Shown here: in pieces, positions 1-15,793 of the stretch
How positions within the stretch are numbered: position 1 is the first letter of the stretch
Layout of the letters: each line of letters starts with the position of its first letter
Source: Candidatus Eiseniibacteriota bacterium
Lineage (GTDB): Bacteria; Eisenbacteria; RBG-16-71-46; CAZAMP01
Direction: 5' to 3'
Length of the DNA stretch: 64,000 nt
Assembly: GCA_965224245.1 (NCBI GenBank)
Contig: OZ245046.1
Location: forward strand, 4,256,001 to 4,320,000
Notes under the pieces: model-generated
Seen by the model: the letters and a program-made list of their open reading frames with translations, nothing else
Database searches by the model: none
Told to the model about the DNA's origin: nothing
Made by a program: the position numbers and the translations under genes

Positions 1-1613
1 TGTTCGACGACGTACTGATCCCGTCGGCCGACACGATCGCCCGGTCCGAGCCGGTCGCGTTTCCAGCGCGGACGATCGCACTCATCTGCGTGGCGATTCT
101 CGCGGCCGGCGTGGCGGCGGGGTTTGCGTTCTACGGCGAGCGCGTGCTCGCCGCCCGCGCGGGCCAGGCCATCGTGTCGTCGATCCGACGGAGCCTGTTC
201 GGTCACGTGCTCCGGCTACCGCTGAGCGACTTTCGCACGCTCAAGCGCGGGGAGATCCTGAACCTCCTGGGACGCGACGTGGAGCACCTCCGCGAGCTCC
301 TGGTCAACGTCATCCTCGACGTCGCCGGGTCGGTCGTGCACGTGGTGACGATGCTGACGATCATGTTCCTGCTGAACCCGCGGCTGAGCCTGGTCGCCCT
401 GGCCATACTGCCCCTGGTCGGGCTGGCGTCGGTCGAGGTCTCGTTCACGATGCGCGACGTGGCGCGCAAGCAGCGGCGGCGCGAGAGCCTCCTTCTCAGC
501 TCGGCCCAGAACGTGCTCGACGCGATGCCGATCGTGAAGATCTTCGGGCGTGAGCGCTCGGAGCGGCGGCGCTTCGCGCGCGACAACCGGGCCACGCGTC
601 GAGCGGGGGTCAAGCTGAAGCGGCTCGAGGCCGCCCTCGTGCGCCGCGTCGAGGTGCTGCTGGCGCTCGCCACGTGCGTGTTCATCTTCGTCGGCGTCCG
701 TGAGGTGTGGCTGGGCGAGCTGAGCGCCGGCGGCCTGTTGCTCTTCGCGTCGTATCTGAAGTCCTTCCAGAAGCCCATCCGCCGGCTCACCCGCAGTGCG
801 GCCAAGCTCTCGCGCGCGACCACGTGCGGCGAGCGCGTCGCCGAAGCCTTCGCACGTCCGATCGAGCTCGATACCGAGGGTCCCGAGGTCGAGGAGTGCG
901 CGCGCTCGCTGTCGGGCGAGGTGACGTTCGAGGACGTTTCGCTTCGCTACCCCGACGGTACCGTCGCGCTCCGGGACGTGTCCTTTCACGTCCCGGCCGG
1001 GTCGGTGGTCGCGCTGATCGGTCCGAGCGGCGCGGGAAAGTCCACGCTCGTGTCCCTGATCACGCGCCTGATCGATCCCACCTCCGGCATCGTTCGATAC
1101 GACGGACAGGACGGCACGAGGATCCCGCGCGGCGTCGTGCGCCGCCACGTGACCGCCGTGTTCCAGGAGAGCTACCTCTTCGACGGCACCATCGCCGAGA
1201 ACCTGCGCTACGGCCGCGAGGACGCCGACGACGCGGATCTCCGCGAGCACGCCGTTCGGGCCAATGCGTGGTCGTTCGTGGAGGCACGAGGCGACGTGCT
1301 CGAGGCGCCCGTCGGGGACTTCGGCCGGCAGTTCTCCGGGGGTGAGCGCCAGCGCCTCACGGTTGCACGGGCACTCCTGCGCAACGCGCCGATCGTGCTC
1401 CTCGACGAGCCGACCCGGGGACTCGACGACGTCTCCGCGGCCGCGGTCCGTCGGGCGCTCGTGGACTACGGTCGGGGACGCACGGTATTCTGGGCCACCC
1501 ACGACCCCGAGGAGGTCTCTCACGCCGACCTCACGCTCGTCGTGACCGAGGGTCGAGCCCGTCTGCACCGGGGTGCCCCTCAGGCGGCGCTCGGGGAGGT
1601 ACCGGCATCGTGA
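1..1613 (+). CDS. ABC exporter, fused permease/ATP-binding subunit (5' end lies before the window)
   Basis: Frame is open from base 3 (FDDVLIPS...). TM segments are followed by Walker A GPSGAGKST, signature FSGGERQR, Walker B IVLLDE and H-loop ATHD. Stop overlaps the next GTG (GTGA). Confidence 0.92.
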   Translation, partial: FDDVLIPSADTIARSEPVAFPARTIALICVAILAAGVAAGFAFYGERVLAARAGQAIVSSIRRSLFGHVLRLPLSDFRTLKRGEILNLLGRDVEHLRELLVNVILDVAGSVVHVVTMLTIMFLLNPRLSLVALAILPLVGLASVEVSFTMRDVARKQRRRESLLLSSAQNVLDAMPIVKIFGRERSERRRFARDNRATRRAGVKLKRLEAALVRRVEVLLALATCVFIFVGVREVWLGELSAGGLLLFASYLKSFQKPIRRLTRSAAKLSRATTCGERVAEAFARPIELDTEGPEVEECARSLSGEVTFEDVSLRYPDGTVALRDVSFHVPAGSVVALIGPSGAGKSTLVSLITRLIDPTSGIVRYDGQDGTRIPRGVVRRHVTAVFQESYLFDGTIAENLRYGREDADDADLREHAVRANAWSFVEARGDVLEAPVGDFGRQFSGGERQRLTVARALLRNAPIVLLDEPTRGLDDVSAAAVRRALVDYGRGRTVFWATHDPEEVSHADLTLVVTEGRARLHRGAPQAALGEVPAS

Positions 1614-2917
1614 CGACGTCCGTGCCCCGGTTCATTCCGTCTCGCTGGCTCGGCGAGACTCCGGATGCACCGCGCGATCCGGATCTGCCCGAGGCCGACC
1701 TCCTGACCGATCGCGCCACGCTGGCGAGCTGGCTCTCCGCGTCGTGGAACGTCCCGGGCGCCGTCGATCCGTCGGAGATCGTGTACGAATCGGTTCGCTA
1801 CAAGCCCGGCGTGCGGCTGACCGCGGTGACCCGGCTGGGCGCCCTGCGAGTCACCTGGCGGGCGTTCCCCACAGGCGACGCCGAGGTTGCGTGGCAGAAG
1901 CTGATCGACGGCGGCGTTCGCGGACAGGATCGCCTGCGCGCGGGATCCATCATCGGGCTCCGCTTCCCCCAGGACCACGTGCTGAGCGGGCTGACGCGTC
2001 TCGTCCCCGGCCGGCTCGGCGCGACGTACGTCCGCCGCCTGATCCCCGGCCTGACCGACGAGCGCACGCGCCTCCGCTCCTACAGCTTCGACCCCACGCT
2101 GATCCGCTACAAGCCGGAGCGACACGCCGTGTTCCATCTGACGTTCACGGTGCGCGACGCCGGTGACGGACACAAGGAGCGCCGCCGGGCGATCGCGCGC
2201 GTGCTCCCGCCCGGCTCGCCCCCGCCGCCGGCGCCGGAGACGTCGTTCACCCCGCGGCCCCTGGCCTGGGACGCCGACAACGGCGTGTCGATCGAGTCGT
2301 TCGTGCCGGGCCGCACGCTGGCCGCCGTGCTCGCGGGGGGCGGTGACGACGAGCTCGCGCCGGATGCCGGCACGGTGATCGCGCGCGATGACGCCCTCAC
2401 CATGGTCGGGTCGGCGTTGGCCGCCCTTCACGCGCTCGGCGCGGTCGGGCGACGGATCCTCGAACCGCCGAGGGCACACGTCCCGCTCTGGGAACCGGCA
2501 ATCCGAGACGACGTCTCGCGCGTGATCGCCGCGCTCGCGGCAGCCGCCTCGCCGGTGGCGTCGCCGACCACCGTCCACGGAGACCTGCATCCCGGTCAGG
2601 TCCTGTTCGACGGCGAGAGGTGGTGGCTCGTCGATCTGGACAAACGAGGCCGGGCGGCGCCCGAGCGCGATCTCGGAGACCTGATCGCCGCGCTCCTCGA
2701 GGCCGACGCCGGCGCGAGCCTCCAGGAGCTCCGCGCGCCGCTCGTCGCGGGCTACCGGCGGGCGGGGGGTGGCACGCTCTCGGAGTCGGCGCTACGCACG
2801 TGGACCGCGGCCGCCGTCGTGCGCCGGGCCGAGGCGCCGCTACGCAACCTCCATCCGGACCGCCACGCGATCGCCCGGCGCCTGCTCGCGCTGGCGGAGG
2901 ACATCGCCGGTACCTGA
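1610..2917 (+). CDS. Aminoglycoside-phosphotransferase (APH)-like kinase
   Basis: Catalytic HGDLHPGQV, metal-binding DLD and ERDLG; two RYKP motifs. Translationally coupled to the ABC gene. Confidence 0.85.
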   Translation: MTTSVPRFIPSRWLGETPDAPRDPDLPEADLLTDRATLASWLSASWNVPGAVDPSEIVYESVRYKPGVRLTAVTRLGALRVTWRAFPTGDAEVAWQKLIDGGVRGQDRLRAGSIIGLRFPQDHVLSGLTRLVPGRLGATYVRRLIPGLTDERTRLRSYSFDPTLIRYKPERHAVFHLTFTVRDAGDGHKERRRAIARVLPPGSPPPPAPETSFTPRPLAWDADNGVSIESFVPGRTLAAVLAGGGDDELAPDAGTVIARDDALTMVGSALAALHALGAVGRRILEPPRAHVPLWEPAIRDDVSRVIAALAAAASPVASPTTVHGDLHPGQVLFDGERWWLVDLDKRGRAAPERDLGDLIAALLEADAGASLQELRAPLVAGYRRAGGGTLSESALRTWTAAAVVRRAEAPLRNLHPDRHAIARRLLALAEDIAGT

Positions 2918-2921
2918 CCGA

Positions 2922-5726
2922 TCAGGTCCCGTGGACCGCGAACGCTCCCCAGTAGAACGGATGATCCCAGCGATCGCGCACCTCGCGACGCGCCGAACGC
3001 AGTGCCTCCAGGGGATCCCGCCGGTCCGCCGCCGCGTAGCCACGGTGGAACGCGCTCATCAGGGCGAGCGTCGACTCGTCGTGAACGCGCCAGTTGCTCG
3101 CCACGAGCTGCCGGACGCCGGACGCCAGGAACGCGTGCGCGACGCCGGAGAGATCGTCGCCTCGACCCGAGAACACCTGGCCGGTGTTGCACGCGCTCAG
3201 CACGACCAGATCCGCGCGCATCCGCAGATCGAGCACGTCGGCCATGAAGAGCGCGCCGTCGGTGGTGCTGAGTCGCGAGAACAGCGGGTTGTCCTCGCGG
3301 AACACGCCGTGGGTCGCCAGGTGCACGAGATCGTACCCCGGTAGCTCGCGCACCAGCTCGCTCGACGAGGGATCCAGCCTCACGTCCACCGTCGTGTCCG
3401 CCACGCCCGCGAGGCTGTCGGAGACGGCGGCCACCTCGGACGCCACGTGAACGGGCGTGTTGCGCACGGTTCCGGCGACCAGCACGCGTGCGAGCGGGCG
3501 GCGACGTCTCGCGATCGCCAGCACGTCGGCCGTGGGCAGCCGCGAGAGATGCCAGCGCGACTCGACGTAGACGTAACCGTCGTGGAGACACTCGAAGGGC
3601 ACGTGGTGCAGGCTCCGATGCGGAACCAGATGGAGGTGCGCGACGTCCGCCAGCTCGTCCTCGAACGGACGCACGAGGCCGTCGTAGAGCGGACCGAGCG
3701 TGGACAGCGACGAACGCGTCATGAAGTCGAGGTCGACGACGCCGTCCCCGACCATGGCCATCGTGTCCAGCTGGAAGCGGTTCTCGCCGAGGAGCCGGTG
3801 GACGTCGCCGGGCGCGATCTCGAGCACGCGCCAGGCGCATCGATCCCGGCGGGCGCAGATGGCCACGATGCGTTCGTCGGTCTCGAAGTAGAGGATCGCC
3901 GCGTCCGTCGGACCGAGGGTCTCCATCACGAGGTCGAGCGAGTGTGCGTCCGCGCCACCGGTGCCGCTCGAGCGCCGGGCGTCGCGTCGACGCATCAGCT
4001 CGGCGATCCGGCGCTCGGTGCGGCGGATGTCCCTCTGGACCGGCTCGCGGACGTCGCTGGCGGCACCTTCGTGTTCGAGATCCTGCAGACGCTGCGTGAG
4101 CGCTCCCAGCACCGCCCGCTCCTCGGCCAGAGCCGCGTCGTCGGCGTCGCCGCCGATCGGGTCGGAGCGATGGAGACGCTCGCGATGGGCGCGCCCCCGC
4201 GCGCGCTCGAAGAGCGCGTAGAGCCGGGTCGCCGAGGTACGTCGGCCCGCGGACAGGACGTCGATCAGGTCGTGGTACGCGCGGACGTGATCCTCGAACG
4301 CACGGGACCGGTACTCGATTCCGGGGATGAGCTGGAGCTGCCGCTCGACCTCCCGGACGGCGCGGCGCAGGCGGCGGCCGGCCTCGGCGTGCTCGCCGCG
4401 GGCGCGGGCGATGCGGCCTGCCAGCGACCAGATGCGTCCCCGATCTCCCGGCGATGCGGACGCGGCCCGGGCCAGCGCCTCGTCCACCGCGCGCTCGGCC
4501 CGGGTGAGCCGACCGGCCATCACGTGTCCGATGGCGATCAGGCGGTGCCCCTCGGCGCCGATCGAGTCCACGTCGCGACGGTGCATCGACCGGAGCGCGC
4601 GGCGCGCATGCCGGATCGCGGTCGACGGGTCCCCGAGCATCAGCCGCGCCCGCGCCGCGAGGAGCGCCGCGCTCGCGGCGCGCGGCGCCATGCGTTGCCC
4701 CCGGAAGTACGCCCACGGCTCGGCGAGCCGCTCCAGTGCCAGCGTGGGCTCGCCCGCGATCAGGTGGGCCCGGGCGATCAGGACGCGCGAGAGCGCCGCG
4801 TCCAGGTCCAGCCCGTCACGCGCGAACTGCTCGGCGGCGAGGCGTGCGTGCTCGATCGCCTCGGCCGCCATCGACAGCTCGAGGTACACGTGCGCGCGCT
4901 CCCGCTCGGTGGCGGCCACGAGATCCGAGGCACCCTGGGAGCCGAAGTGAGCGCGGGAGGACTCCAGCAGCTCGAGTGCACTCCTGAAGTCACCGCCCAG
5001 GCGCTGGAGGTGGGCGCGGTCGAGCTCGGACAGACCGACGAACCGCTCGAGCCCGAGGCGGCGCGCCAGGCGCTCCGCCTCCAGGAACAGCGCGCGGGCG
5101 TCACGCAGCCGCAGGAGCTTCGTGCAGGCGACCGCCTGGTTGATCAGGAGGCTGACGCGTGTCTCGTCGTGCCCGTCGAGACGCCCCAGCGCGTCGGCGG
5201 CGACACGGTACCAGTCGAACGCCTCGTCGTAGCGCTCGGCGTGATAGGCGTTGCTGCCCTGGACGCCGGCGAGCTTGCCCAGGTAGACGTCGTCACGGGC
5301 GCGGGTCAGAAGTCGTCTCGCCTGCTCGGCGCGGCGACGGGCCTCGTCGAGGCGGCCCACGAGCCCCAGCACACCCGTCCACCCAACCAGCGTCTGACCC
5401 AGGAGACGCTCCTCGTGCGCGGCGTTCGCGATGTCGACCGAGCGCGCGTAGGCGTCGCTTGCGCGCTTGAACCGCCCCATGAACGCCAGCGCCTCGCCGG
5501 CGCTCCGCCAGGCCATCGCGAGGGCGAAGGGGTCGACGTCGTCCTGAACGCGCTCCACGCACCGGCGGAACGCACCGGCCAGCGTGTGCGCCTCCCGCGG
5601 ATCGCTGGCCAGCAGCCCGGCGATGCGATCGCGCGTCGCCTGCGCCTCCTGGCGATCGAGCGGCTCAGCACGCGCGTCCAGCCACCGGTGGAGCTCGGCG
5701 GCGGTCATGTCGGGTATGGAGGTCAC
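2922..5726 (-). CDS. TPR-repeat CHAT-domain (caspase-HetF) protease
   Basis: Long helical TPR-like N-terminus. CHAT motifs LVPHRSLHHVPF, VHLATHG (His), VLSACNTG (Cys), ASNWRV and HPFYWGAF. Confidence 0.92.
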   Translation of the reverse strand: MTSIPDMTAAELHRWLDARAEPLDRQEAQATRDRIAGLLASDPREAHTLAGAFRRCVERVQDDVDPFALAMAWRSAGEALAFMGRFKRASDAYARSVDIANAAHEERLLGQTLVGWTGVLGLVGRLDEARRRAEQARRLLTRARDDVYLGKLAGVQGSNAYHAERYDEAFDWYRVAADALGRLDGHDETRVSLLINQAVACTKLLRLRDARALFLEAERLARRLGLERFVGLSELDRAHLQRLGGDFRSALELLESSRAHFGSQGASDLVAATERERAHVYLELSMAAEAIEHARLAAEQFARDGLDLDAALSRVLIARAHLIAGEPTLALERLAEPWAYFRGQRMAPRAASAALLAARARLMLGDPSTAIRHARRALRSMHRRDVDSIGAEGHRLIAIGHVMAGRLTRAERAVDEALARAASASPGDRGRIWSLAGRIARARGEHAEAGRRLRRAVREVERQLQLIPGIEYRSRAFEDHVRAYHDLIDVLSAGRRTSATRLYALFERARGRAHRERLHRSDPIGGDADDAALAEERAVLGALTQRLQDLEHEGAASDVREPVQRDIRRTERRIAELMRRRDARRSSGTGGADAHSLDLVMETLGPTDAAILYFETDERIVAICARRDRCAWRVLEIAPGDVHRLLGENRFQLDTMAMVGDGVVDLDFMTRSSLSTLGPLYDGLVRPFEDELADVAHLHLVPHRSLHHVPFECLHDGYVYVESRWHLSRLPTADVLAIARRRRPLARVLVAGTVRNTPVHVASEVAAVSDSLAGVADTTVDVRLDPSSSELVRELPGYDLVHLATHGVFREDNPLFSRLSTTDGALFMADVLDLRMRADLVVLSACNTGQVFSGRGDDLSGVAHAFLASGVRQLVASNWRVHDESTLALMSAFHRGYAAADRRDPLEALRSARREVRDRWDHPFYWGAFAVHGT

Positions 5727-5823
5727 GGCGTCTCTCGGGAAACGGTCGAGGCGACCGGCCTGACGACGGGATGGCCGGCGGCGACCCCCGGGGCCCGAGT
5801 GTGACCGATCCCGGACCCGGCGG

Positions 5824-6480
5824 CTAGGAGCCGCCTTCCGAGGGAACGTTCACGAGCACGGACTGGTCGCCGATCCGGAGCCGTAGCGACCGGACACCGG
5901 CCGGCAGGTCGGCCAGCCGGAAGCGGCCCAGCTCGCCGATCGGTGCCTCGAGGCTCTGTCCGTCGCCTTCCACGGACACCAGCCCGCCGGGCTCGATCGA
6001 CGCCCCGCTCCTCGGAACGAGCTGCCCGTCGATCGTGGTCGACCCGTCCGCGCTCCGGGTGAGATTGATGGAGATGACCAGATCCGGGGTCTCGTACACG
6101 AGCATCCTGGGGGTGGCGACGCCCGATCCGCGAAGGTTGAGCGCCGGCTGGAGCGAGTCGCGAACGAGAGCCGCCGCCACCTCACGCGCGGCCTCCGACA
6201 GTGACGACAGCGCCCGGATCGCCAGCTCGCGGAGCGTCGTGCGATCGGGGCGAGAGGTCTCTGCGCGCAGGAACGCGAGGGAGCGCTCGATCGTGTCGGC
6301 CGTGGGCGTGAACGCGCGAGCGTCGGACATGGCGGACGAGAGCATGGCGATGCGCACCAGCTCGTCGCAACAGGTCTCGCAGCCCGCGACGTGGCTCTCG
6401 ATCGCCGGGTCGGTCTCCAGATGATGCGCCCAGAGCGCCTCCCAATCGGGATGACCGGCGTGCTGCGTGTCAGAACTCAT
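5824..6480 (-). CDS. Putative soluble zinc-finger anti-sigma factor with C-terminal beta-sandwich
   Basis: HxxxCxxC (HVAGCETC) near the N-terminus and no TM helix. ATGA overlap with the sigma gene stop. Confidence 0.72.
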   Translation of the reverse strand: MSSDTQHAGHPDWEALWAHHLETDPAIESHVAGCETCCDELVRIAMLSSAMSDARAFTPTADTIERSLAFLRAETSRPDRTTLRELAIRALSSLSEAAREVAAALVRDSLQPALNLRGSGVATPRMLVYETPDLVISINLTRSADGSTTIDGQLVPRSGASIEPGGLVSVEGDGQSLEAPIGELGRFRLADLPAGVRSLRLRIGDQSVLVNVPSEGGS

Positions 6481-7076
6481 GGCCTCGAGTCTCCCTCAGG
6501 CTCGCGTGCGTCGTCGCGCTCGCTTGCAATGAACAACGTCGAGAGCTGTTTCAGGCACCGCCCCCGCGTGGGACCGATGCTCCCGACCGGCAGTCCCTCG
6601 CGCTCGGAAATCGCCTCGTAGCTGGGCCGAGGATCCTCCAGATAGAGCATCCTGAGGAGCCGCCGGCATCGTTCGCTGATCGCGTCCAGCGCATCGTCGA
6701 GTCGGCTCATGTCCTCGAAGCGCTCCAGGGCCTCGGCGAAGTCCGGGTCCGACACGCCGGCGAGCACCTCCAGGAACGGGTCGTCCCCGGCGAGGCGAAC
6801 CTCCCGGCGACCCGCCGCAATCCGCTGCAGCGCGACCCGCCGCGCGATCACGTAGACCCACGACGCGAGCCGATCGGCTCGACGAAGCCGGCCGATCGCC
6901 CCGTGCACGGCCACGAGCGTGTCCTGCAGGACCTCCTCGTGCTCGGATGCGTCGAGTCCGACCTTGTGGGCAGCGAAGTAGACGAGCCGGCCGTACGAGC
7001 GCACGAACTCCCGCCATGCCGCATCCTCCCCGCGAGCGAGGGCCTCGACCAATGCATCCGGCGCCGTGTCCGTCAC
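6477..7076 (-). CDS. ECF-type RNA polymerase sigma factor
   Basis: Region 2 (AWREFVRSYGRLV...EEVLQDT...SWVYVIARR) and region 4 (SYEAISEREGLPVGSIGPTRGRCL). Confidence 0.93.
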   Translation of the reverse strand: MTDTAPDALVEALARGEDAAWREFVRSYGRLVYFAAHKVGLDASEHEEVLQDTLVAVHGAIGRLRRADRLASWVYVIARRVALQRIAAGRREVRLAGDDPFLEVLAGVSDPDFAEALERFEDMSRLDDALDAISERCRRLLRMLYLEDPRPSYEAISEREGLPVGSIGPTRGRCLKQLSTLFIASERDDAREPEGDSRP

Positions 7077-7079
7077 GGG

Positions 7080-7260
7080 TAGAAGCTCCTAAGCTATTGA
7101 TGCTTCTTACTCTAGACGGACCAGAGCCGCGCGGTCAACGATTGCTGGCCCCGGATGTCCTCCGGGCGGCTTGCAGAGAAGTGCATCCGGGCCCTCGGTT
7201 GATACATGCATTCCCGGCCTGGACGGCGCGTATCAGATGTGCGCGGGCGCCAACGTGTGG
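7080..7260. promoter_or_regulatory. Divergent promoter region between the sigma gene and the GT-APH gene, with an inverted TGATAC...GTATCA pair and an IHF-like site
   Basis: AT-richer intergenic stretch. TGATAC at 7200-7205 and GTATCA at 7230-7235. 7090-7102 reads CATCAATAGCTTA on the minus strand, one mismatch from WATCAANNNNTTR. Confidence 0.4.
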
Positions 7261-7263
7261 GTC

Positions 7264-9081
7264 ATGACGTGCGAATCCCGATCCACGATCGCCCCAGCGG
7301 CCCGCGACGGGGTCCTGCCCCGGGGGGCCCTCGTGATGGCCGCGACGGCCCGGACCGGGCTGGGTCACGTGCGCCGCCTGGGGCGCCTGGCCGACTCGTT
7401 CCGGCGATTTCGCCCGGACCTCCCCATCGCCCTGCTCACGAACGCCGCGCGGGATCGGATCCCGTCCAACCTGGCAGGACCGTTCGACGCGATCGCGACC
7501 GCGGACCGCGCCGACATGAGCCGGGCCCTCGCCGGCTCGGAGCCGTCGCTCGTCGTCGTCGACACGGCCAGGGTGCCGGACCTCGACGCGGTGGGCGCGC
7601 GTTGCGCCCTCGTTCTCCGGCAGGTCGTGGAGTCGCACGTCCCGCAGTTCGCGCTCCAGGGCCGCCCCTGGGATCTCGTGATCATCCCGAACCCGCCGGA
7701 CGCCTGGCGCCCCCGGCTCGACGCGCGGTTCACACGCAGCGCCGTCTGGGCCGGATGGATCTCCGAGGCCGTCGACCGGACCGGCCGGGGCGCCGACGCG
7801 TCCGCCGTTCCGTCGATCGTGGTGACCTGTGGCGGAAGCGATCGAAGCGTTCCCGAAGCGTTGGTCCGGTCCCTGGTCGATGGGATCCGCCGGCAGTGCG
7901 AGCCGCTGGACGTGATCGAGCTGGTCGGCCCGGGCGCGGCGCCCGTGCTGGACGACCAGGCGCGTGTCATCCGGTCCGCACCCGACCCGATGGAAATCAT
8001 CGCGTCCGCGAGCCTCTGCATCTCGGCCTCCGGATACAACACCGTCCTGGATCTGGCCCGGACGGACACCCCGGCCGTGCTCATCGGCAAGGAGCGGCGC
8101 CACGACGACCAGCCCGAGCGAGCGCGACAGTGGGGACCGCGCCTGGGAGCGGTGTGCCTCTCACCCCACGACGTCGCCGACACCGTGGAGTGGTGCCGTC
8201 ACACGCTCGCCGGGCGAACGCGGCGGGCCCCGATCGACCTCGGTCCGCGCGGGGACGACGTGGCCGCCGAACGCCTGGCGAGGTTGATCCGCGTGAGTCG
8301 CCACGGCAGCCGGGGCGAGAAGCGACTGTTGCCGCGGGATCGATCCGGTCACGCCCTGGCGCGACTCTCCGAGGAGATGCGCGCGCGCGGCGCGCCGACT
8401 CCGCGCCTCGACTCGCCGACCCCGGGCACGCTCACCTGGAGATGGCAGGCCGGCGCGACCGCGGCGGAGCTCTGGCGGGCCGACGCGCGCGAGGCGTCTC
8501 GGGACCGGCTCGTCTCGCGGATCGCGACCGCGGTCCGGCACTTTCACGTGCCGTCGGGCGGGCTGGGGCTCGATCGTTACGATCCCTGGTGTCGGGTCCG
8601 GTCGCGCGTGGCGGATCTCCGGCGGTCCCATCCCGAGCTCGCCTCGGTCGCCGACGCCCTGGTGTCGGCGATCGACGCGCGCATCCACGCCTCGTGGCGT
8701 GTCTCCGAGGACGGCGAGTGCGTCGTCCACGGCGATCTCCACGTGGGCCAGCTCGTCGTCGGACCCGACGGCGAGCTCTCCGTGATCGACCTGGACGACG
8801 TCGCGCGCGGCCGTCCCGAGTGCGATCTCGGCAACTTCATCGCCCACCTCGAGACCTCCACGCCGGAGCCCGAGGACGCCGACACCCGCCGCCGGTGGCG
8901 ACGCGTGCTGCCCCGCGCCTACCGCGAGGCCGGCGGGACGTGCGACGACGACGTGCTTCATGCGTTCGCACAGGCGTCCCTCGTGCGCCGGGCGCTGAAG
9001 CGCTTCGAGTCGAACCGGGACCCGGAAGGGCTCGCCGGCCGGCTCCAGCTCATTCGACGGGAGCTGGACCCGGCCCGCTGA
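7264..9081 (+). CDS. GT-B glycosyltransferase (GT28-C-like) fused to an APH-like phosphotransferase; start uncertain (7264-7336)
   Basis: GT-B motifs GLGHVRR, VVTCGG, ISASGYNT and DDQPERA, then C-terminal HGDLHVGQ, DLDD and ECDLGNF in one frame. Confidence 0.82.
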   Translation: MTCESRSTIAPAARDGVLPRGALVMAATARTGLGHVRRLGRLADSFRRFRPDLPIALLTNAARDRIPSNLAGPFDAIATADRADMSRALAGSEPSLVVVDTARVPDLDAVGARCALVLRQVVESHVPQFALQGRPWDLVIIPNPPDAWRPRLDARFTRSAVWAGWISEAVDRTGRGADASAVPSIVVTCGGSDRSVPEALVRSLVDGIRRQCEPLDVIELVGPGAAPVLDDQARVIRSAPDPMEIIASASLCISASGYNTVLDLARTDTPAVLIGKERRHDDQPERARQWGPRLGAVCLSPHDVADTVEWCRHTLAGRTRRAPIDLGPRGDDVAAERLARLIRVSRHGSRGEKRLLPRDRSGHALARLSEEMRARGAPTPRLDSPTPGTLTWRWQAGATAAELWRADAREASRDRLVSRIATAVRHFHVPSGGLGLDRYDPWCRVRSRVADLRRSHPELASVADALVSAIDARIHASWRVSEDGECVVHGDLHVGQLVVGPDGELSVIDLDDVARGRPECDLGNFIAHLETSTPEPEDADTRRRWRRVLPRAYREAGGTCDDDVLHAFAQASLVRRALKRFESNRDPEGLAGRLQLIRRELDPAR

Positions 9082-9159
9082 CGGTGCGACTCGCGGCGCC
9101 GGATCGGCTATCATACCGCCCCGGTGACGGAGCCTGAGGTCCAAACAGGAGGCGAACGC

Positions 9160-9723
9160 ATGTCGTCCCGGTTCATGACCCGCGCGATCCTGACGGCGAT
9201 CGCGACGATCACGCTCGGCTGCGCACAGAGCTCGGACTCCGAGACCGGTGGCGACGACGCGGCCGCCACCGCCGAGTCCGCCGCCGAGCCCACCGCCGAG
9301 CCCGTGGACGCGGCCGCGCTGGAGAAGGCCGCGGCCGACCTCGCGGCCGAGATCGAGACCCAGATCACCGCCGGGGCCGCCGGACACGCGTGGCGATTCG
9401 GTCAGAGCGACGTGGAGTGCGAGGAGCTGACCGCCGCGGTCCTGAACGCCAGTCCGGCCGACTACGCCGACGTGAAGGTCCGCATCCGGGGAACGGTCGC
9501 CGCGGTCTGCCAGGCCCGCGGCTGCTGGGTTCAGGTGGAGGATTCCAGCGGCGAGGCGCTCTTCGCCAAGAGCTTCGACCATCGGGTGCTGATGCCCAAG
9601 AACTGCGAAGGCATGGAGATCGACGTCGTGGGCACGATGTACGCCGATCCGGTCGAGGACGGCGAGGAGCAGACGTACTCGTTCTCGCTCGACGGGGCCA
9701 CCCTGGTCGCGCCCGAGGGCTAG
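9160..9723 (+). CDS. DUF4920-like lipoprotein (OB-fold)
   Basis: AGGAGG RBS, lipobox TLGC, and motif VCQARGCWV. Confidence 0.7.
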   Translation: MSSRFMTRAILTAIATITLGCAQSSDSETGGDDAAATAESAAEPTAEPVDAAALEKAAADLAAEIETQITAGAAGHAWRFGQSDVECEELTAAVLNASPADYADVKVRIRGTVAAVCQARGCWVQVEDSSGEALFAKSFDHRVLMPKNCEGMEIDVVGTMYADPVEDGEEQTYSFSLDGATLVAPEG

Positions 9724-9772
9724 CGCGGCGAGGTTGCCCCCCGGCGCCGACGGCTCGATCGACTAGACCGGC

Positions 9773-12499
9773 TCAGCGCGCGGACGCCGGTGGTCCGGGC
9801 GCGCGCCCGCGCGCGACCACAAAGCCGTAGACGGTGAGCAGCGCCACCACGCCCATCAGGATCATCGACGACGCACCGTGCCACGCTCCGAACGCCAGGC
9901 TCGTGGGCCCGATCGTGAGCGTCAGGTACACGAAGAACTGCGTGACCAGTGCCAGGAGCCCCAGCCTGAGCATGATCCCGATCCAGATGGACACCTGAAG
10001 GAACGACGCGACCGCGGCCACGATCTCGTTCCCCCCGAACACCCCGAGACGCAGCGAGAACGCGATCGTCATGATCAGCGTCAACAGCCCGATCGCGATC
10101 CACTGCTTGCGCACGACGACCTGCAGGATGAACGGCATCACCACGAAGAAGAACCCGTTGATCAACGCCGTCGGAAACCCACCGATCAGGAACGCGAGCG
10201 TCCGACCGGGGCTGGTCATGGTGCTGAACTGCGTCGAGGCGAGATAGGCCGGGAGCGAGCTCTCGAGGCCGAGCTGCTGGGGCAGGAGCGCGTGCACCGC
10301 GTCCAGGAGATACACGATCAGCCCGAAGAGCGACCCCAGGAGCACGCTCCGGCCCACCAGGGGATCCCGGTGACGACCGGCCAGCGCCCGCGACCAGGCC
10401 ACGATCCGCTCGGGGGCCTCCCGGCGCACGTACGGCTCGAGCGCCGCGTAGAGCACCCACACGAACCCACCCAGGAACAGCGCCGATCCGGCAGCGGTCG
10501 TGATCTGACCCCACTCCGAGGTGAGCGCCGACACGTGATGCGCGCTCAGCGCCCACGAGGCGAAGCTCGTGATCGACGCGATCACCGCCAGGCGTGACGC
10601 GCCCCGCCAGTCGCCGCGCCGCAGCTTGTGGTGACGGCGGACGAGATAGGCCGCCCCCACGATCACCAGCAACACGACGATCACGATGATGTTGAGGCCG
10701 AGTCGGGCCCGGCCCGGCACCAGGCTGGCCACCACACGGCTGGGCCGGCTCCAGGGACTGACCACGTCGAAGAACGTGATACCCTCGCCGGCCGTTCCGA
10801 CATCGACGCGGCGCGCGCTCGCGGAGTCGGCGCCCACCTCGAACCAGGACTCCAGCGCATCGCAGTAGAGGTGCGGGTTCAACACCGGCGCTCCCCGCTC
10901 GAAGCGACTCTGATCGAGTCCGGCGGCGTCGAAGAGCCTCGAGATCCGCGCGTCCAGATCGGCGCGGGCGGCGGCGTCGAGGGCACGCCCCTCGCTGGAG
11001 TCACGCACGGCGTCGGCCACGCACTCCAGACCGACCAGGCTGCCGTCGAGCCCCAGACCCACCCGCGTCATGCCCTCCCAGTACATCGTGGGGTCGTTGA
11101 TCGTGACGTAGCCCTCGCCGCCCTCGGCGACGAGGGGCCGCGGGCTCGAGCGATACCAGAATTGCACGGCGGCGGGCACCGCGCGGGCGACGCTGTCCCG
11201 GAGACTCGTGCGCGTGTCGGCGGATCCGAGCGCCAGCAGGATGGTCTGGCTCATGCGGTAGCCCGCCCGCTCGTCGGCGACCGGGGGCTGGATGCCCGCC
11301 TCGGCGAGCAGATCCCGCGCGCGCTCGACGAGGACATCGTGTCGCTTCCCGTCGGGGAACGCCGTGAAAACCCGTGTGTGCTCGGTGGATCGTCCCGCGA
11401 GGAAGAGGAGGGCGAGCGTGACCAGAAACACCGACCAGGCCACCGCCGGCGAGAGCCGGCCGATGACGTCCGCGGCGGCCACCGCCTCGGGGGACGGGGT
11501 CTCCCCGGCCGCCAGGGCGGCCGCCAGCGGATCGCCGCCGGGGAGCGCCGCGGCCACCGCCAGCGCCGACTCGGGGCGCCGCGTCGGGTCGGGGTCGAGG
11601 CACCGGTGGAGCACGGCCTCGACGAGCGGATCGATGTCGAGCCCGGTCGACGTCGTGGAAAGCTCGGTGGGCCGCGAGTGCAGGCGCGAGAGCTCGTCGA
11701 TCGAGTCGGCGTCGTACAGGCGCTGGCCGGTCAGCACCTCGTGCAGCACCAGACCCAGCGAGTAGATGTCGCTCTGGACCGAGACCGACTCGCCCCGGAG
11801 CTGTTCGGGGGCCATGTAGACCGGCGTTCCCGCGCGGATCTCCCGCTCGTCGAGCTCGGCCGACGCCGTGGCGAGACCGAAGTCGGTGATCCGGGCGTTT
11901 CCGTCGCCGTCCAGCATCACGTTGGCCGGCTTCAGGTCGCGGTGCAGCACGGATTTCTTGTGGGCGGCGGCCAGCCCCGCGCAGACCTGGCGCGCGATGT
12001 CGATCGCCTTGTCCCGCGGCAGCCGGCCGATCCGGCGCAACAGCGACGAGAGGTCCTCGCCGTCGATGTACTCCATCGACAGGTAGTAGTGCCCGTCGCT
12101 CTCGCCGATGTCGTACACGCGGCACACGTTCGGGTGGGAGATCTGGCGGGCGATCCGGACCTCGTTCAGGAAGCGCTCCAGGCGCTCGGGACTCGAAGCC
12201 AGGGCCGGCGGGAGGAACTTCAGCGCGACCGGGTGATTGAGCGTCAGGTCGTCGGCCCGGTACACCTCGCCCATGCCCCCCCGCCCCAGGAGACCGATGA
12301 TGCGATAGCGGCCCGCGAACACGGATCCGGCCGTGAAGCGCACGCCGGGGCCCGGCGCGACCCCGTGCGCGGGCGCGCCGGACGAGGCGATCGTCTCGGC
12401 CATCGACGTCTCGCTGACCGACGATCCGCAGACGCCGCAGAATCGTGCGCCGGAGGGGACGTCGGTGCCGCACGTCGGGCATGTCGCGTGATCGGGCAT
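9773..12499 (-). CDS. Hanks-type Ser/Thr kinase with N-terminal zinc ribbon and multi-pass membrane C-terminus
   Basis: CPTC...CGVC; GRGGMGEV, VALK, HRDLKPAN, DFG, APE and DIYSLG; then one TM, an extracytoplasmic segment and several TMs. The true start is MPDHATC, not the 1294-aa ORF start. Confidence 0.92.
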   Translation of the reverse strand: MPDHATCPTCGTDVPSGARFCGVCGSSVSETSMAETIASSGAPAHGVAPGPGVRFTAGSVFAGRYRIIGLLGRGGMGEVYRADDLTLNHPVALKFLPPALASSPERLERFLNEVRIARQISHPNVCRVYDIGESDGHYYLSMEYIDGEDLSSLLRRIGRLPRDKAIDIARQVCAGLAAAHKKSVLHRDLKPANVMLDGDGNARITDFGLATASAELDEREIRAGTPVYMAPEQLRGESVSVQSDIYSLGLVLHEVLTGQRLYDADSIDELSRLHSRPTELSTTSTGLDIDPLVEAVLHRCLDPDPTRRPESALAVAAALPGGDPLAAALAAGETPSPEAVAAADVIGRLSPAVAWSVFLVTLALLFLAGRSTEHTRVFTAFPDGKRHDVLVERARDLLAEAGIQPPVADERAGYRMSQTILLALGSADTRTSLRDSVARAVPAAVQFWYRSSPRPLVAEGGEGYVTINDPTMYWEGMTRVGLGLDGSLVGLECVADAVRDSSEGRALDAAARADLDARISRLFDAAGLDQSRFERGAPVLNPHLYCDALESWFEVGADSASARRVDVGTAGEGITFFDVVSPWSRPSRVVASLVPGRARLGLNIIVIVVLLVIVGAAYLVRRHHKLRRGDWRGASRLAVIASITSFASWALSAHHVSALTSEWGQITTAAGSALFLGGFVWVLYAALEPYVRREAPERIVAWSRALAGRHRDPLVGRSVLLGSLFGLIVYLLDAVHALLPQQLGLESSLPAYLASTQFSTMTSPGRTLAFLIGGFPTALINGFFFVVMPFILQVVVRKQWIAIGLLTLIMTIAFSLRLGVFGGNEIVAAVASFLQVSIWIGIMLRLGLLALVTQFFVYLTLTIGPTSLAFGAWHGASSMILMGVVALLTVYGFVVARGRAPGPPASAR

Positions 12500-12673
12500 C
12501 GTGAGCCGGGTCCTTCCGCTGGACGGGGGACCGGGGAGTATGCCAGGCGTGAGAGGCCACCGAAAGCCCGTCGAGGGCGGGGCCGCGATCGGCGGAGCGA
12601 GGAGTTTGCACGCGCGCGATCGCGCCCCGTAAACTCCGTCCCCACACGTTCCCCGGCGCCAAGGAGTCCTGTC

Positions 12674-14443
12674 GTGAGGTCGATTCTCGTGGAGCTGTCC
12701 GAGCGCGTTCGCGTCGCCATGTCGGCGGTCGGCGCCGAGGGGGATCCCCTGGTTCACGTCTCGGGCGACGAGCGCTTCGGGGACTACCAGTCGAACTGTG
12801 CGATGGGGCTGGCGAAGACGCTCGGCAAGAAGCCGCGCGAGATCGCCGAGGGCATCGTGGCCGTGCTCGACGTGTCCGACATGTGCGAGCCGCCCGAGAT
12901 CGCGGGGCCGGGGTTCATCAACTTTCGCCTGACGCCCGCGTTCCTGGGCGAGACGCTGTCGGCGCTGCCGTCGGTCTCCGAGCCGGGGGGGCGACGTCTG
13001 GGCATCCCGGAGGTGACGCCGCGGCGAACCGTGGTCATCGACCTCTCGGCCCCGAACCTGGCCAAGGAGATGCACGTCGGCCATCTGCGCTCGACGGTGA
13101 TCGGCGACGCCGCCGCGCGGATCCTCGAGTTCCAGGGCCACAAGGTCATCCGCGAGAACCACGTCGGCGACTGGGGCACGCAGTTCGGGATGCTGGTCGC
13201 CTATCTGCGACGCACCCAGGCCGACGTCCTGCGACGGCTCGACGATCTGGTCATCGCCGATCTCGAGGCGTTCTACGTCGAGGCCAAGGCGCTCTTCGAC
13301 GCCGACGACGGGTTCAAGCGCGAGTCGCAGGAGACCGTCGTGGCGCTCCAGCGCGGCGAGCCCGAGACCCGGCGGGTGTGGAAGGCGTTCTGTGACGAAT
13401 CGCTCCGGCACTGCCACACGATCTATGATCGCCTCGACGTCTCGCTGATCGATCGCGGCGAGAGCTTCTACGAGGACCTGATGCCGATCGTGATCCAGCG
13501 TCTCGTGGACGCCGGCCACGCGGTCGAGAGCGACGGCGCGCTCGTGGTGTACCTCCCCGGATACACGACGAAGAGCGGCGACCCCCTCCCCCTCATCGTG
13601 CGGAAGTCGGACGGGGGCTACAACTACGCGTCGTCCGACCTGGCCACGCTCGTGCATCGGGTGGACGAGCTCGGTGCGTCACGAATCGTGTACGTCGTGG
13701 GGGCCCCGCAGAAGCAGCACCTGGCGATGGTGTTCGCGACCGCCCGCCTGGCCGGGTGGGTCGAGGACGGCGTGTCGCTCGAGCACCTGGCGTTCGGCAG
13801 CATGCTCGGCGCCAACGGCAAGCCCTTCAAGACGCGCGAGGGCGGCACCGTGAAGCTGAAGTCACTCCTCGACGAGGCGGTGGCGAAGGCCCGCGAGGTG
13901 ATCGAGGGGGCCTCCGACGGCCCCCGGCGCGAGCTGAGCGCGTCCCAGGTGGACGAGGTGGCGGAGACGGTCGGCATCGCCGCGATCAAGTACTTCGATC
14001 TCTCGCACGCGCTCACGACCGACTACAAGTTCGACGTGAACACGATGCTGGCGATGGACGGCAACACCGCGCCGTACATGCTCTACGCGTACGCGCGCAT
14101 CCGCTCCATCGGCCGGAACGCGGACGTCGACTTCGACACGCTGCCGCCGCATCCCATCCGCGTCGAGCATCCGACCGAGCTGGCGCTGGCCAAGATGCTC
14201 TGCCGGTTCCGCGACGTCGTGGACCAGATCGGTCACGACATCCGGCCGAACCTCCTGACCGACTACCTCTACGACCTCAGCAAGACGTTCAGCCGATTCT
14301 ACGATCGGAACGTCGGTGTTCGGGTCATCGACGCCGAGGGCGATGACGTCCGCGAGTCGCGCCTCCGGCTCTGCGACGTGACGGCGCGTACGCTGAAGCT
14401 GGGGCTCTCGCTCCTCGGCATCGGCACCGTCGAGCAGATGTGA
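12674..14443 (+). CDS. argS: Arginine--tRNA ligase
   Basis: AAGGAG RBS before GTG; FGDYQSN, PNLAKEMHVGHLRS (HIGH), NHVGDWGTQFG, FKTREG, GNTAPYMLYAYAR and C-terminal VEQM. Confidence 0.97.
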   Translation: MRSILVELSERVRVAMSAVGAEGDPLVHVSGDERFGDYQSNCAMGLAKTLGKKPREIAEGIVAVLDVSDMCEPPEIAGPGFINFRLTPAFLGETLSALPSVSEPGGRRLGIPEVTPRRTVVIDLSAPNLAKEMHVGHLRSTVIGDAAARILEFQGHKVIRENHVGDWGTQFGMLVAYLRRTQADVLRRLDDLVIADLEAFYVEAKALFDADDGFKRESQETVVALQRGEPETRRVWKAFCDESLRHCHTIYDRLDVSLIDRGESFYEDLMPIVIQRLVDAGHAVESDGALVVYLPGYTTKSGDPLPLIVRKSDGGYNYASSDLATLVHRVDELGASRIVYVVGAPQKQHLAMVFATARLAGWVEDGVSLEHLAFGSMLGANGKPFKTREGGTVKLKSLLDEAVAKAREVIEGASDGPRRELSASQVDEVAETVGIAAIKYFDLSHALTTDYKFDVNTMLAMDGNTAPYMLYAYARIRSIGRNADVDFDTLPPHPIRVEHPTELALAKMLCRFRDVVDQIGHDIRPNLLTDYLYDLSKTFSRFYDRNVGVRVIDAEGDDVRESRLRLCDVTARTLKLGLSLLGIGTVEQM

Positions 14444-14444
14444 C

Positions 14445-15638
14445 GTGATCGGCCGCCTGGGCGCATCGCTTCAGGTGACGCTGCTGGTGGGCGGGGCCGG
14501 TGTCGGCTTCGCGCTGTCGATGCTGCTCCTGGCGCGGGTGATGGATCCCGGCGACTTCGGACGCGTGACGCTCGGCATCAGCATCGTGAACGTGGCGTTT
14601 CCGCTGGCGACGCTCGGGCTGGACGGGATCGTCGTGCGGCACCGGCTGACGGCGACGCGGTCGCTTCTCGGACGCGTGGTCCGGACGTCGCTCGCCGTGG
14701 CGCTGCTCGGCGGGATGGTGGCGGCGATCGGCTACGACCTGCCCCGGGCACTCGCGTTCTGGATCGCGCTGGCCATCGCCGGGGGCGGCGTGATGTACCT
14801 CGCGTCGATGCGCTACCAGAGCCTCGAGCAGTTTCCGATCGCGATCACGCTCGGGCAGAGCTCCAACTTCGTCCTCCTGGCCACCGCCGTCGTCGCGCTC
14901 GGCCTGGGGCGGTCCGGCGACACGGGGCCGCTGGCCGCGATCGCGATCGGTCACGTCGTGGCGGCGATCGGCGTGTGGTGGGTCCTCCTCAGGCGCGATC
15001 GCGACGCGCCCGCGCCCCCCTCGACGTGGCGGTGGGGCGAGGCGCTCTCGCTGGCCGGCGCGACCGGGGCGACGCTCCTCCTCTTGCAGCTCGAGCGGCT
15101 GCTCGTGCCCCACGTGCTGGATCTGGATCGACTGGCCGAGCTCGGCGTCATCGCGGCGGTCGTGCTGAGCCCGTACCGGATGCTCCAGAGCGGCGTACAG
15201 AAGAGCCTCCTCCCGCGCCTCCGGAACGCGCCGGACGCCGCGGCCCGGCGCGCGATTCTGACCACCGACCTCCGGGTCGTGTGCGGTCTCCTCGTCGTGG
15301 GGACGCCGCTGGTGTGGGTCCTGACGCCGATCGTGGTGGAGCTGCTGGTCGGGGCGGGCAAGTACCCGGTGGATCGGGCGCTGGTGCTGGCCGCGATCGT
15401 CTCGGGGATCGCCAAGGTGGCCACCGGTGCGGTCGACGCACTCGTGTCGGCGACGCTGGACGCGCGCGGGCTGGCGGTCTGGAACCTCGTCGGCTGGGGC
15501 GGGGTCGCGGTGGCCATCGTCGGGGGCGTCGTGGGCGCAGAGGTGGGCGGGCTGCCGGGCGTGCTCTACGGGGTCGCTCTGGGATGGCTAGGCCGCTCGG
15601 TGAGCGGGATCCGGATGGCGCGCCGGCCACGCCGGTAA
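14445..15638 (+). CDS. Wzx-like polysaccharide flippase / lipopolysaccharide biosynthesis membrane protein
   Basis: About 12 hydrophobic segments and the N-terminal LLLARVMDPGDFG pattern typical of MOP/Wzx proteins. Confidence 0.7.
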   Translation: MIGRLGASLQVTLLVGGAGVGFALSMLLLARVMDPGDFGRVTLGISIVNVAFPLATLGLDGIVVRHRLTATRSLLGRVVRTSLAVALLGGMVAAIGYDLPRALAFWIALAIAGGGVMYLASMRYQSLEQFPIAITLGQSSNFVLLATAVVALGLGRSGDTGPLAAIAIGHVVAAIGVWWVLLRRDRDAPAPPSTWRWGEALSLAGATGATLLLLQLERLLVPHVLDLDRLAELGVIAAVVLSPYRMLQSGVQKSLLPRLRNAPDAAARRAILTTDLRVVCGLLVVGTPLVWVLTPIVVELLVGAGKYPVDRALVLAAIVSGIAKVATGAVDALVSATLDARGLAVWNLVGWGGVAVAIVGGVVGAEVGGLPGVLYGVALGWLGRSVSGIRMARRPRR

Positions 15639-15793
15639 CTAACTGTTTAAAACAACTTGGACGACATCCGGGCCCTGGCGCGCCGGGGTGGGAGCGAACG
15701 TGCGCAGGACGCGTTGCGTGCTCCGCTCCCGGACCCCGCTTCTCCCCACGACGACCCGAAGCCGACCGACACGACCGACGAAAGGACGACCGC

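Follow-up and report, generated by a model that had tools for sequence, protein, structure and literature searches.

The stretch of DNA considered here (the window) is a 64,000-nucleotide (nt) segment of contig OZ245046.1, positions 4256001-4320000, from a Candidatus Eiseniibacteriota bacterium. Its left end carries a regulatory triad, namely the genes for a sigma factor of the extracytoplasmic function (ECF) type, a candidate anti-sigma factor, and a caspase-like protease of the TPR-CHAT type, set among genes for an ATP-binding cassette (ABC) exporter, two APH-fold kinases, and a glycosyltransferase (GT). According to the explanation favored here, which is held to be fairly probable as a whole, these genes are the right-hand end of a regulon island of ~25 kb in a diderm bacterium, and the sigma factor would control the synthesis and export of a glycan together with a set of secreted proteins. 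In this lineage, the triad and the glycan cassette probably represent one functional unit, because their linkage is conserved and a promoter-like motif is common to both. The whole account of the locus is sequence-based, with gene calls made from open reading frame (ORF) coordinates and scans of the Pfam and NCBIfam families judged by their cut-offs. The source genome (6.94 Mb) is designated G000, the contig C1, and the 18 kb to the left of the window L002; other L-numbers are labels of compared loci.

A first-pass annotation of window positions 1-9081 had described an ABC gene, an APH gene, a convergent CHAT/sigma operon, and a divergent GT-APH fusion, and this layout is confirmed by the ORFs and family scans. 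It had also expected the system to continue to the left and had proposed to look there for further GTs, a peptidase, or a substrate gene. Indeed, the system extends 7.3 kb beyond the window edge in the form of a plus-strand operon whose gene ends abut or overlap, and which encodes a Glyco_tran_28_C transferase (GT28C), a porin, two GT4 transferases (GT4a and GT4b), and the start of the ABC exporter. Three more GT genes are found upstream, and an S8 subtilase is encoded in a divergent set of genes. The cassette as defined here comprises seven to eight genes that account for four GT domains, two kinases with a Gln-ended catalytic loop (Q-loop), the ABC exporter, and the porin.

Common control of these genes is suggested by a bipartite promoter-like motif, GTATCA-N17-AC(C/T)TnT (ACCTnT in shorthand), read in the direction that fits the gene starts. 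Of 30 regions of 263 nt taken upstream of sigma genes, 20 contain the hexamer TGATAC (GTATCA on the opposite strand), where 0.036 copies per region would be expected; the hexamer is not enriched across the window (8 sites, with 6.5 expected). Other genomes contributed 68 loci with 140 GTATCA sites, and among these sites an AC...T element is found at spacer 17 in 30 cases, at 18 in 10, and at 15 in 7, each of the other spacers from 10 to 24 accounting for 0-3. The 40 sites with spacer 17 or 18 are distributed as follows: 13 follow the sigma gene immediately, in its own orientation, and stand before the anti-sigma and CHAT genes, 11 lie 30-500 nt upstream of GT28C, four are upstream of S8 genes, four are upstream of other cluster genes, and eight have no assignment. 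The opposite reading of the motif, with TGATAC as a −10 element facing the sigma gene, was dropped because in those 13 loci the site sits just downstream of sigma on the same strand, and because in the other orientation it precedes GT28C start codons by 35-60 nt.

A matrix built from 27 non-redundant instances, none of them from G000, was used to scan both strands of the source genome, and four intergenic sites of the island rank 2, 4, 8, and 15 in the 6.94 Mb. Two of them stand back to back in the window: GTATCA-N17-ACTTCT at 7177-7205 on the minus strand (rank 2, 22.3 bits) points at the sigma/anti-sigma/CHAT operon, and GTATCA-N17-ACGTGT at 7230-7258 on the plus strand (rank 8, 18.3 bits) points at GT-APH. 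The other pair is located upstream, at C1:4248737-4248765 (−) toward the genes of the CarboxypepD_reg proteins and the S8 subtilase (rank 4), and at C1:4248807-4248835 (+) toward the GT28C operon (rank 15). At 16, 18, 20, and 22 bits, the real genome gives 14, 9, 4, and 2 sites, and the reversed genome 8, 3, 2, and 0. Because the reversed genome also yields matches, the evidential weight lies in how the sites are grouped and positioned, with four of the best fifteen falling in two short intergenic regions, in the right orientation and at the right distance. Four further candidate sites in G000, at C1:4935899(−), 4080622(+), 993085(+), and 377879(+) (L177-L180), each precede a gene whose product is secreted and bears a sorting domain of the FlgD_ig/Por_Secre_tail type at its C-terminus. 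Three of these hold matrix ranks 1, 3, and 7, and the one at 377879, which has an 18-nt spacer, came only from a pattern scan allowing 16-18-nt spacers. G000 has 66 Por_Secre_tail matches, and no GldM_1st match was found in it.

The second line of evidence is the linkage of triad and cassette within the organism's own class (Eisenbacteria), sampled as 206 genomes. GT28C homologues are present in 51 of them, and 50 cassette loci, each centered on the best GT28C homologue of another genome, were compared. A sigma gene lies within 10 kb in 20 of these loci and a CHAT gene in 16, with the sigma gene most often head to head with GT28C. When used as a tblastn query at E<=1e-5, the sigma factor finds three matches in the whole of G000, itself included, so that chance adjacency would amount to ~0.9% per 20 kb. 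The sigma-positive cassette loci belong to at least seven families and show convergent, co-directional, and divergent arrangements. In the sigma tree, GT-linked sigma factors occur in both deep clades, and 12 changes are needed to account for their labels, compared with an average of 19.4 after shuffling. All these class fractions are descriptive, since related genomes are non-independent and many contigs are short.

Viewed from the side of the triad, the anti-sigma family is present in 50 of the 206 genomes. The 20 triad loci fetched from the class contain sigma in 19 cases and CHAT in 19; their commonest partner is an S8 subtilase, which stands beside the sigma gene, usually divergently, in 14. 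In three of them (L035, L041, and L042), GT4a/GT4b/ABC/APH genes adjoin the triad in three different arrangements. The source genome itself has a second, paralogous triad at C1:3573378-3578800 (L046), with identities of 43%, 31%, and 43% for the sigma factor, anti-sigma factor, and TPR-CHAT protein, respectively, and with a divergent S8 subtilase gene that has a motif site 50 nt upstream. In family f9, the sigma genes (L152, L157, L159, L161, and L169) have the hexamer TAnnnT placed 5-10 nt ahead of their likely ATG; this suggests that mRNAs of the lineage have no leader or hardly any.

The third line of evidence comes from outside the class, where 66 loci from named genomes were fetched with the alignment of the GT-APH fusion and searched by tblastn with the proteins of the locus. 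The sample consists mostly of Rhodobacterales, Hyphomicrobiaceae, and other Alphaproteobacteria, with some Gammaproteobacteria or Burkholderiaceae and one Entotheonella. At E<=1e-5, GT28C was detected in 57 of these loci, GT4a in 53, GT4b in 52, and the ABC exporter in 53; at E<=1e-3, 54 loci gave a match to the kinase APH1, whose gene follows the ABC gene, and 44 gave one to the porin. A match to the kinase half of the fusion is present in 62, the loci having been retrieved with that fusion's alignment. The usual gene order is GT-APH, GT28C, GT4a, GT4b, ABC, APH1. Homologues of the sigma factor, the anti-sigma factor, or the CHAT protein were found in none of the 66, even at E<=1e-3; a histidine kinase is encoded in 50 and an NtrC/NtrX-type response regulator in 45, usually on the opposite strand between GT-APH and GT28C. 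Judged by this distribution, the cassette of GT, kinase, and ABC genes is of old origin and does not depend on the triad, and since it occurs without the triad in all 66 loci, the triad would be a lineage-specific regulator added to an older cassette. The swap of the cassette regulator between phyla also provides independent evidence that adjacent regulators control the cassette. Taken together, linkage, regulator swap, and motif argue that the adjacent sigma factor controls the cassette in Eisenbacteria.

The first-pass annotation had offered two alternatives, an insertion of the triad into a GT/kinase/ABC operon or a whole block conserved as a module, and had suggested synteny with CHAT/ECF genes as a check. 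Each alternative captures a part of the picture. The cassette without the triad in 66/66 loci outside the class agrees with insertion, although the association recurs within the class; the block behaves as a module in at least seven families of the class, in several gene orders, but in 0/66 loci beyond it. Likewise, the synteny holds within the class, where sigma is linked in 20/50 loci against a background of ~1%, but not outside.

Several side observations concern the proteobacterial loci. In the Rhodobacterales loci L082 and L100, a histidine kinase and an NtrC/NtrX-type regulator are encoded inside the cassette at 11600-14350 (−), and the GT28C protein of L100 (14240-16069, +; Rhodobacterales) carries an N-terminal receiver (REC) domain. 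A general sigma-54 dependence of the cassette was considered and is not claimed, as the strict pattern gave only 15 sites in 13 of the 66 loci. Sites of the sigma-54 type (TGGCA-N6-TTGC) lie ~100 nt upstream of GT-APH and GT28C at L061:6377 and 8413 (+), L064:15071, and L108:11914; they are well placed in Entotheonella and a few other loci, and the strict pattern has none in Rhodobacterales. The cassette is carried by many culturable Alpha- and Gammaproteobacteria. Among the papers searched, none described the cassette or this sigma/CHAT-linked system, the related matches concerning DdvA/DdvS or CRISPR (clustered regularly interspaced short palindromic repeats).

A number of points weigh against common control and against the glycan regulon as a whole. 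By itself, the matrix has no more than moderate specificity; in the GT-APH site, the −10 element (ACGTGT) is mismatched, and the site of the GT28C operon scores just 16.0 bits. Moreover, the sigma gene is also preceded by a sigma-70-type promoter-like site, TTGACC-18-TAGAGT at 7109-7138 (−), which is the sole such site in window 2700-9900 (shuffle mean 0.2). As many as 30 of the 50 cassette loci in the class have no sigma gene within 10 kb, many contigs being short, and 16 of the 20 triad loci have no cassette within that distance; coupling between triad and cassette is frequent, not obligate. No sugar-nucleotide, polymerase, or initiating transferase genes are present in the cassette, and among 60 relatives searched, the full-length GT-APH fusion was not found in other Eisenbacteria.

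Some of these points would also be expected if the genes were mere neighbors, the triad regulating only itself and the S8 subtilase, the cassette being separate, and the motif belonging to another factor. The rank of S8 as the commonest triad partner, the triad loci without a cassette and the cassette loci without sigma, and the sizeable decoy rate of the matrix on the reversed genome all speak for such an arrangement. It is nevertheless considered unlikely, because linkage far above background is kept through rearrangement in at least seven families, 11 loci from other genomes have the motif ahead of GT28C, and the G000 sites precede both transcription units of the cassette.

In terms of mechanism, the favored explanation of a sigma-controlled regulon can be outlined as follows. 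In Eisenbacteria, the control by a histidine kinase and an NtrC/NtrX-type regulator would have been replaced by the ECF sigma factor, a soluble zinc-type anti-sigma factor, and a cytoplasmic TPR-CHAT protease. Cleavage of the anti-sigma factor by CHAT would free the sigma factor, as proposed by analogy with the Csx29-Csx30-CASP-sigma and DdvA systems discussed below, and the free sigma factor would start transcription at GTATCA-N17-AC(C/T)TnT promoters, which it presumably reads. Four target units are predicted: the sigma operon, GT-APH, the GT/porin/GT4/GT4/ABC/APH operon, and the divergent secreted-protein set ending in the S8 subtilase. The cassette would build a sugar-based product in the cytoplasm by means of a GLGH-type GT-B transferase, two GT4 enzymes, and another GLGH-type transferase to which a kinase is joined; the two Q-loop APH-fold kinases would phosphorylate it, an MsbA-like ABC exporter would carry it over the inner membrane, and an AlgE-like beta-barrel over the outer one. 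Such cytoplasmic assembly and phosphorylation followed by export across two membranes fits the presence of four GT-B domains, two sugar-kinase-like domains, an exporter with fused transmembrane and nucleotide-binding domains (TMD-NBD), and an alginate-type barrel, and we infer that the product may be a phosphorylated glycan or glycolipid.

The components of the triad support parts of this scheme. The sigma factor (199 aa, amino acids; 6477-7076, −) scores 67.9 bits against a cut-off of 42.9 with TIGR02937 (residues 20-179) and matches Sigma70_r2 at 4e-11; only two regions, sigma-2 and sigma-4, are present, as in ECF (group IV) factors. An ECF54 context was tried for this sigma factor and rejected: the main text of the ECF reclassification paper (Casas-Pastor 2021, PMC7826278) links ECF54 to a 4Fe-4S protein, and the word CHAT is absent from that main text.

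The sigma gene overlaps by 4 nt the gene for a 218-aa protein (5824-6480, −) that belongs to no Pfam or NCBIfam family. Its N-terminal helical domain contains H30-x3-C34-x2-C37, the zinc-binding anti-sigma (ZAS) motif, which is invariant in an alignment of 13/13 homologues. In the AlphaFold model (pLDDT, predicted local distance difference test score, 78.4), helices 13-55 reach 93-95 and a beta-sandwich forms the C-terminal part; loop 112-121, which holds an invariant R117-G118, has a pLDDT <50 and is predicted to be disordered. No membrane segment was seen. The protein is, therefore, best described as a candidate soluble zinc-type anti-sigma factor, and its pairing with the sigma factor is suggested by the 4-nt gene overlap and the co-occurrence in 19/20 loci.

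The TPR-CHAT protein (934 aa; 2922-5726, −) matches Pfam CHAT at 4.1e-44 (151.6 bits against 24) and TPR_12. Residues H802, H806, G807, and C846 are invariant in 12/12 homologues, in agreement with a His/Cys protease, and the N-terminus is hydrophilic, no signal peptide or membrane helix being seen there. It would be a candidate for cleaving the anti-sigma factor, possibly at the R117-G118 loop, by analogy with the craspase circuit. At 18.7 bits against a cut-off of 300, it falls outside the Csx29 family (NF041237), and no Cas7-11, cas, or CRISPR genes were found among the ORFs of L002 and window 1-16000 (~33 kb). A PADLOC search gave no defense-system match for the triad or the kinases, the CHAT protein resembling BovA only at E 3.2e-4; its matches of the subtilase and of a Ser/Thr kinase were generic.

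A precedent for the overall logic is the AlgU(sigma-22)/MucA/AlgW-MucP system of Pseudomonas aeruginosa, where proteolysis frees an ECF sigma factor from its anti-sigma factor and switches on the alginate operon, whose product is exported by the AlgE-type porin. The island has in common with it the sigma/anti-sigma logic, as predicted here, and a barrel of the Pfam Alginate_exp family encoded in the operon. However, the anti-sigma factor here appears to be soluble and of the zinc type, the protease is a predicted cytoplasmic TPR-CHAT protein and not of the DegS/RseP type, GT-B transferases, two kinases, and an ABC exporter stand in place of Alg8/Alg44, and the promoter motif is another one.

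Another related system is the craspase circuit of type III-E CRISPR systems as outlined in PMC10028731, with the TPR-CHAT protein Csx29, the inhibitor Csx30 that is cut in a flexible loop, and CASP-sigma. Both circuits include a cytoplasmic TPR-CHAT protein, a separate two-domain sigma inhibitor with a flexible loop, and an ECF-type sigma factor; on the basis of that outline, they differ in that no Cas7-11/CRISPR was seen in ~33 kb here, the inhibitor is a 218-aa ZAS protein, and the predicted targets are genes for glycan and secreted proteins. In Myxococcus xanthus, DdvA is one transmembrane protein with a periplasmic TPR-CHAT part, and the DdvS regulon is a CBASS/CRISPR island (CBASS, cyclic-oligonucleotide-based anti-phage signaling system), the release of sigma by DdvA being a proposed model (PMC11506125). 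Going by the description in that source, both systems comprise a sigma factor of the ECF type, an anti-sigma domain that binds zinc, and a TPR-CHAT module in which a His-Cys dyad is present; in DdvA, the parts are joined in one protein, whereas here the anti-sigma factor and TPR-CHAT protein are separate and have no predicted membrane segments. What differs from AlgU/MucA and craspase, as far as gene content tells, is the soluble ZAS anti-sigma factor, the stand-alone cytoplasmic TPR-CHAT protease with no nearby CRISPR genes, and the targets.

The kinases of the cassette were claimed by the first-pass annotation to be related and probably to belong to one pathway on the grounds of HGDLHxGQ, DLD, and ExDLG motifs common to both, and these motifs can be read from the translations. 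APH1 (435 aa; 1610-2917, +; Pfam APH 28.7 bits against 23.2) has an N-terminal extension of 190 residues, an HxDxxxxQ catalytic loop, and the motifs VHGDLHPGQ, LVDLD, and PERDLGDL. The GT-APH fusion (7264-9081, +; divergent from sigma; alternative start codons at 7171, 7237, and 7336) scores 23.2 bits against 22 with Glyco_tran_28_C and 41.9 against 23.2 with APH, and it contains GLGHVRR in the GT half and VHGDLHVGQ, VIDLD, and PECDLGNF in the kinase half. Only the C-lobes of the two kinases align (40% identity over 94 residues, E 2e-10); judged by this alignment, they are related but no close paralogues. Their membership of the GT/ABC pathway is argued by the fact that both accompany GT/ABC genes across the 66 loci in the usual order, and so both claims hold.

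Both kinases have the APH/eukaryotic-like kinase fold (PF01636) by score and by invariant HxD and DxD. The catalytic loop of APH enzymes usually ends in Asn (HGDxxxxN), and in both kinases this position is occupied by Gln, which is invariant in 16/16 GT-APH fusions and 7/7 APH1 homologues. Gln in place of Asn is not unique among APH-fold kinases; the methylthioribose (MTR) kinase of B. subtilis has Ser there in the alignment. H323, D325, Q330, D342, and D344 of APH1 are invariant in 7/7 homologues, as are GLGHxRR (G32, G34, H35, R37, and R38), HxDxHxxQ, and DxDD in 16/16 aligned fusions. In an exhaustive HMMER search, GT-APH matched 965 cluster representatives at E<=1e-3, with 60 remaining at E<=1e-30. 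Fusions that can be aligned over their full length, with 620-700 aa, account for at least 15 of the relatives, and many more are GT-only or kinase-only. The best non-self match, P0007, is a protein of 1549 aa, the first 548 residues of which align with the whole fusion, followed by ~1000 further residues. Other searches were less productive: a single-protein GT-APH search for related loci confirmed no relative, a word-indexed protein search returned only GT-APH itself and two GT-only proteins, a plasmid collection gave one weak APH match only, and an ESM Atlas search with APH1 found generic APH clusters only.

In some Eisenbacteria, both kinase domains are fused in one 782-aa protein. This tandem-APH protein follows the ABC gene in family-f9 genomes (e.g., L152:1900-4248, −), and its second APH domain in L152 resembles the kinase half of GT-APH in bearing HGDLHPLQ and EEDLGNF.

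That the APH-like kinases might be signaling parts that phosphorylate the anti-sigma factor or CHAT rather than the product is suggested by the proximity of APH1 to the CHAT gene, as the first-pass annotation had noted: the genes are convergent, with 4 bp separating the APH1 stop (2917) from the stop codon of CHAT (2922-2924). TCAD9 is matched weakly (21.6 bits, with a cut-off of 40), which points the same way. Such a role is regarded as very unlikely, since both types of kinase persist in the loci without the triad, one of them is fused to a glycosyltransferase, and 16 of the 20 triad loci have no such kinase nearby.

The fusion as a whole was modeled with a pLDDT of 83.6. Its GT half is of the GT-B (GT1/GT28) type, with two Rossmann-like halves, a C-terminal domain for the nucleotide sugar, and a marginal Glyco_tran_28_C score, and in Foldseek it matches 6kqx, 3uyl, and 7d1i (MurG) at E 3e-9 to 3e-7, thus resembling MurG and GT1 UDP-glycosyltransferases (UGTs). 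For the kinase half, the similar folds are choline/ethanolamine kinase, YtaA, APH(9), APH(2''), and the mycobacterial maltokinase (3dxq, 3i1a, and 4o7o), and profile matches to solved structures are weak (3csv at 4.4e-7, MTR kinase, glucosamine kinase, and MurG). In a scan of curated families, no GT or kinase of the cassette reached a family cut-off. The upstream GT28C (429 aa) has GMGNIRR in place of the fusion's GLGHVRR; it was rejected as a close relative of the GT half (E 0.096, not significant), the two having in common only the G-x-G-H/N-x-R-R motif and the Pfam family. Many Eisenbacteria have longer GT28C ORFs of 780-860 aa (L042:8049-10448, +, and others) with a C-terminal extension of ~400 residues that has no Pfam match, and in 25 of the 50 loci a PQQ-like beta-propeller with a FlgD_ig tail follows the extended GT28C.

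These resemblances bear on the possibility that the locus serves detoxification of or self-resistance to a small molecule, with a GT1/MGT-like transferase and Mph/APH-like kinases inactivating a compound that the ABC exporter expels. By fold, the GT half is indeed matched best by the natural-product UGTs YjiC, SpnG, and CalG1; there is a weak profile match to macrolide 2'-phosphotransferase II (5ih0, E 0.0011), and in L100 the GT28C protein hits the MGT model with E 3.4e-12, though with 46 bits against a cut-off of 260. All such matches are far under the family cut-offs, the two GT4 enzymes and the often present alginate-type porin of the cassette fit a glycan or glycolipid and not drug modification, and no small-molecule biosynthetic genes are nearby, so that detoxification is judged distinctly unlikely.

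Among the NCBIfam models, APH1 matches LxmK best (E 5.5e-9), which brings to mind a lanthipeptide-type cluster for a ribosomally synthesized and post-translationally modified peptide, in which the kinase would be LxmK-like and the ABC transporter would export a peptide. However, the LxmK (NF038156) scores are just 35.6 bits for APH1 and 20.5 for the other kinase against a cut-off of 315; the locus has neither a precursor peptide nor a cyclase nor an ABC transporter with a peptidase domain, and the genes conserved alongside encode four GT domains and a porin. This makes such a cluster extremely unlikely.

For the glycan reading, the nearest functional models of the kinases are WaaP, WbdD, and the maltokinase Mak, kinases of the protein-kinase/APH fold that phosphorylate sugars during the assembly of surface glycans, with ABC export afterwards. 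Only Mak (4o7o) was seen as a fold match, and neither kinase belongs to these families at the sequence level; they also differ in having Gln where APH has Asn and in the fusion of one of them to a GT-B domain.

The ABC gene has its 3' 536 codons in the window (3-1613, +; ABC_membrane 4.2e-40, ABC_tran 1.7e-32) and its 5' end beyond the edge. It starts 183 nt further left (L002:17817), and the full protein of 598 aa is a type-I exporter with fused TMD-NBD, like MsbA, NdvA-ChvA, and PglK, which export glycans in free or lipid-linked form. The best models are MsbA (TIGR02203; 9.5e-97, 324.8 bits against 602) and the glucan exporter (1.3e-77, 261.6 against 733), and since these scores are far under every equivalog cut-off, the substrate cannot be named. 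The GTG start of APH1 overlaps the ABC stop, and hence the two genes are probably translationally coupled. At the other end of the proposed export route stands the porin (L002:12034-14964), a 976-aa outer-membrane protein with Alginate_exp and DUF5666, which exceeds the AlgE-type PF13372 cut-off (57.6 bits against 25.2) over residues 597-967.

The divergent set (L002:5650-10689, −; G000:C1:4243650-4248689) encodes two CarboxypepD_reg proteins of 566 and 594 aa, one of them with a FlgD_ig tail, and the S8 subtilase of 496 aa, with the rank-4 motif site in front. Further left of this set and the glycan operon, an RND pump (resistance-nodulation-division) is encoded, which implies a diderm organism. 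In Porphyromonas, type IX cargo is anchored by A-LPS (anionic lipopolysaccharide). In a tentative extension of the scheme, well short of an even chance, a CRISPR-independent, cytoplasmic craspase-like switch would read an intracellular cue and launch a surface program (S8, sorting-domain cargo, and phosphorylated glycan) through a promoter type not described before; the glycan would be an anionic anchor or matrix for the cargo, and the cassette, widespread in Proteobacteria, would accept interchangeable regulators. The island offers a candidate output, with a defined promoter motif, for caspase-like sigma switches outside CRISPR loci.

The DNA is 68-75% G+C. To the right, a gene for a DUF4920 protein (9124-9723, +; Pfam DUF4920 6.1e-11) starts 42 nt downstream of GT-APH and may be co-transcribed with it. 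Its membership of the system is doubtful, and no homologue was found in the 66 mostly proteobacterial cassette loci. Convergent with it is the gene for a Ser/Thr protein kinase of 1294 aa (9773-13657, −) with a zinc ribbon before the kinase domain; a kinase of this kind stands beside the cassette in 0/66 loci outside the class and in 2/50 within it, and its position is, therefore, not conserved.

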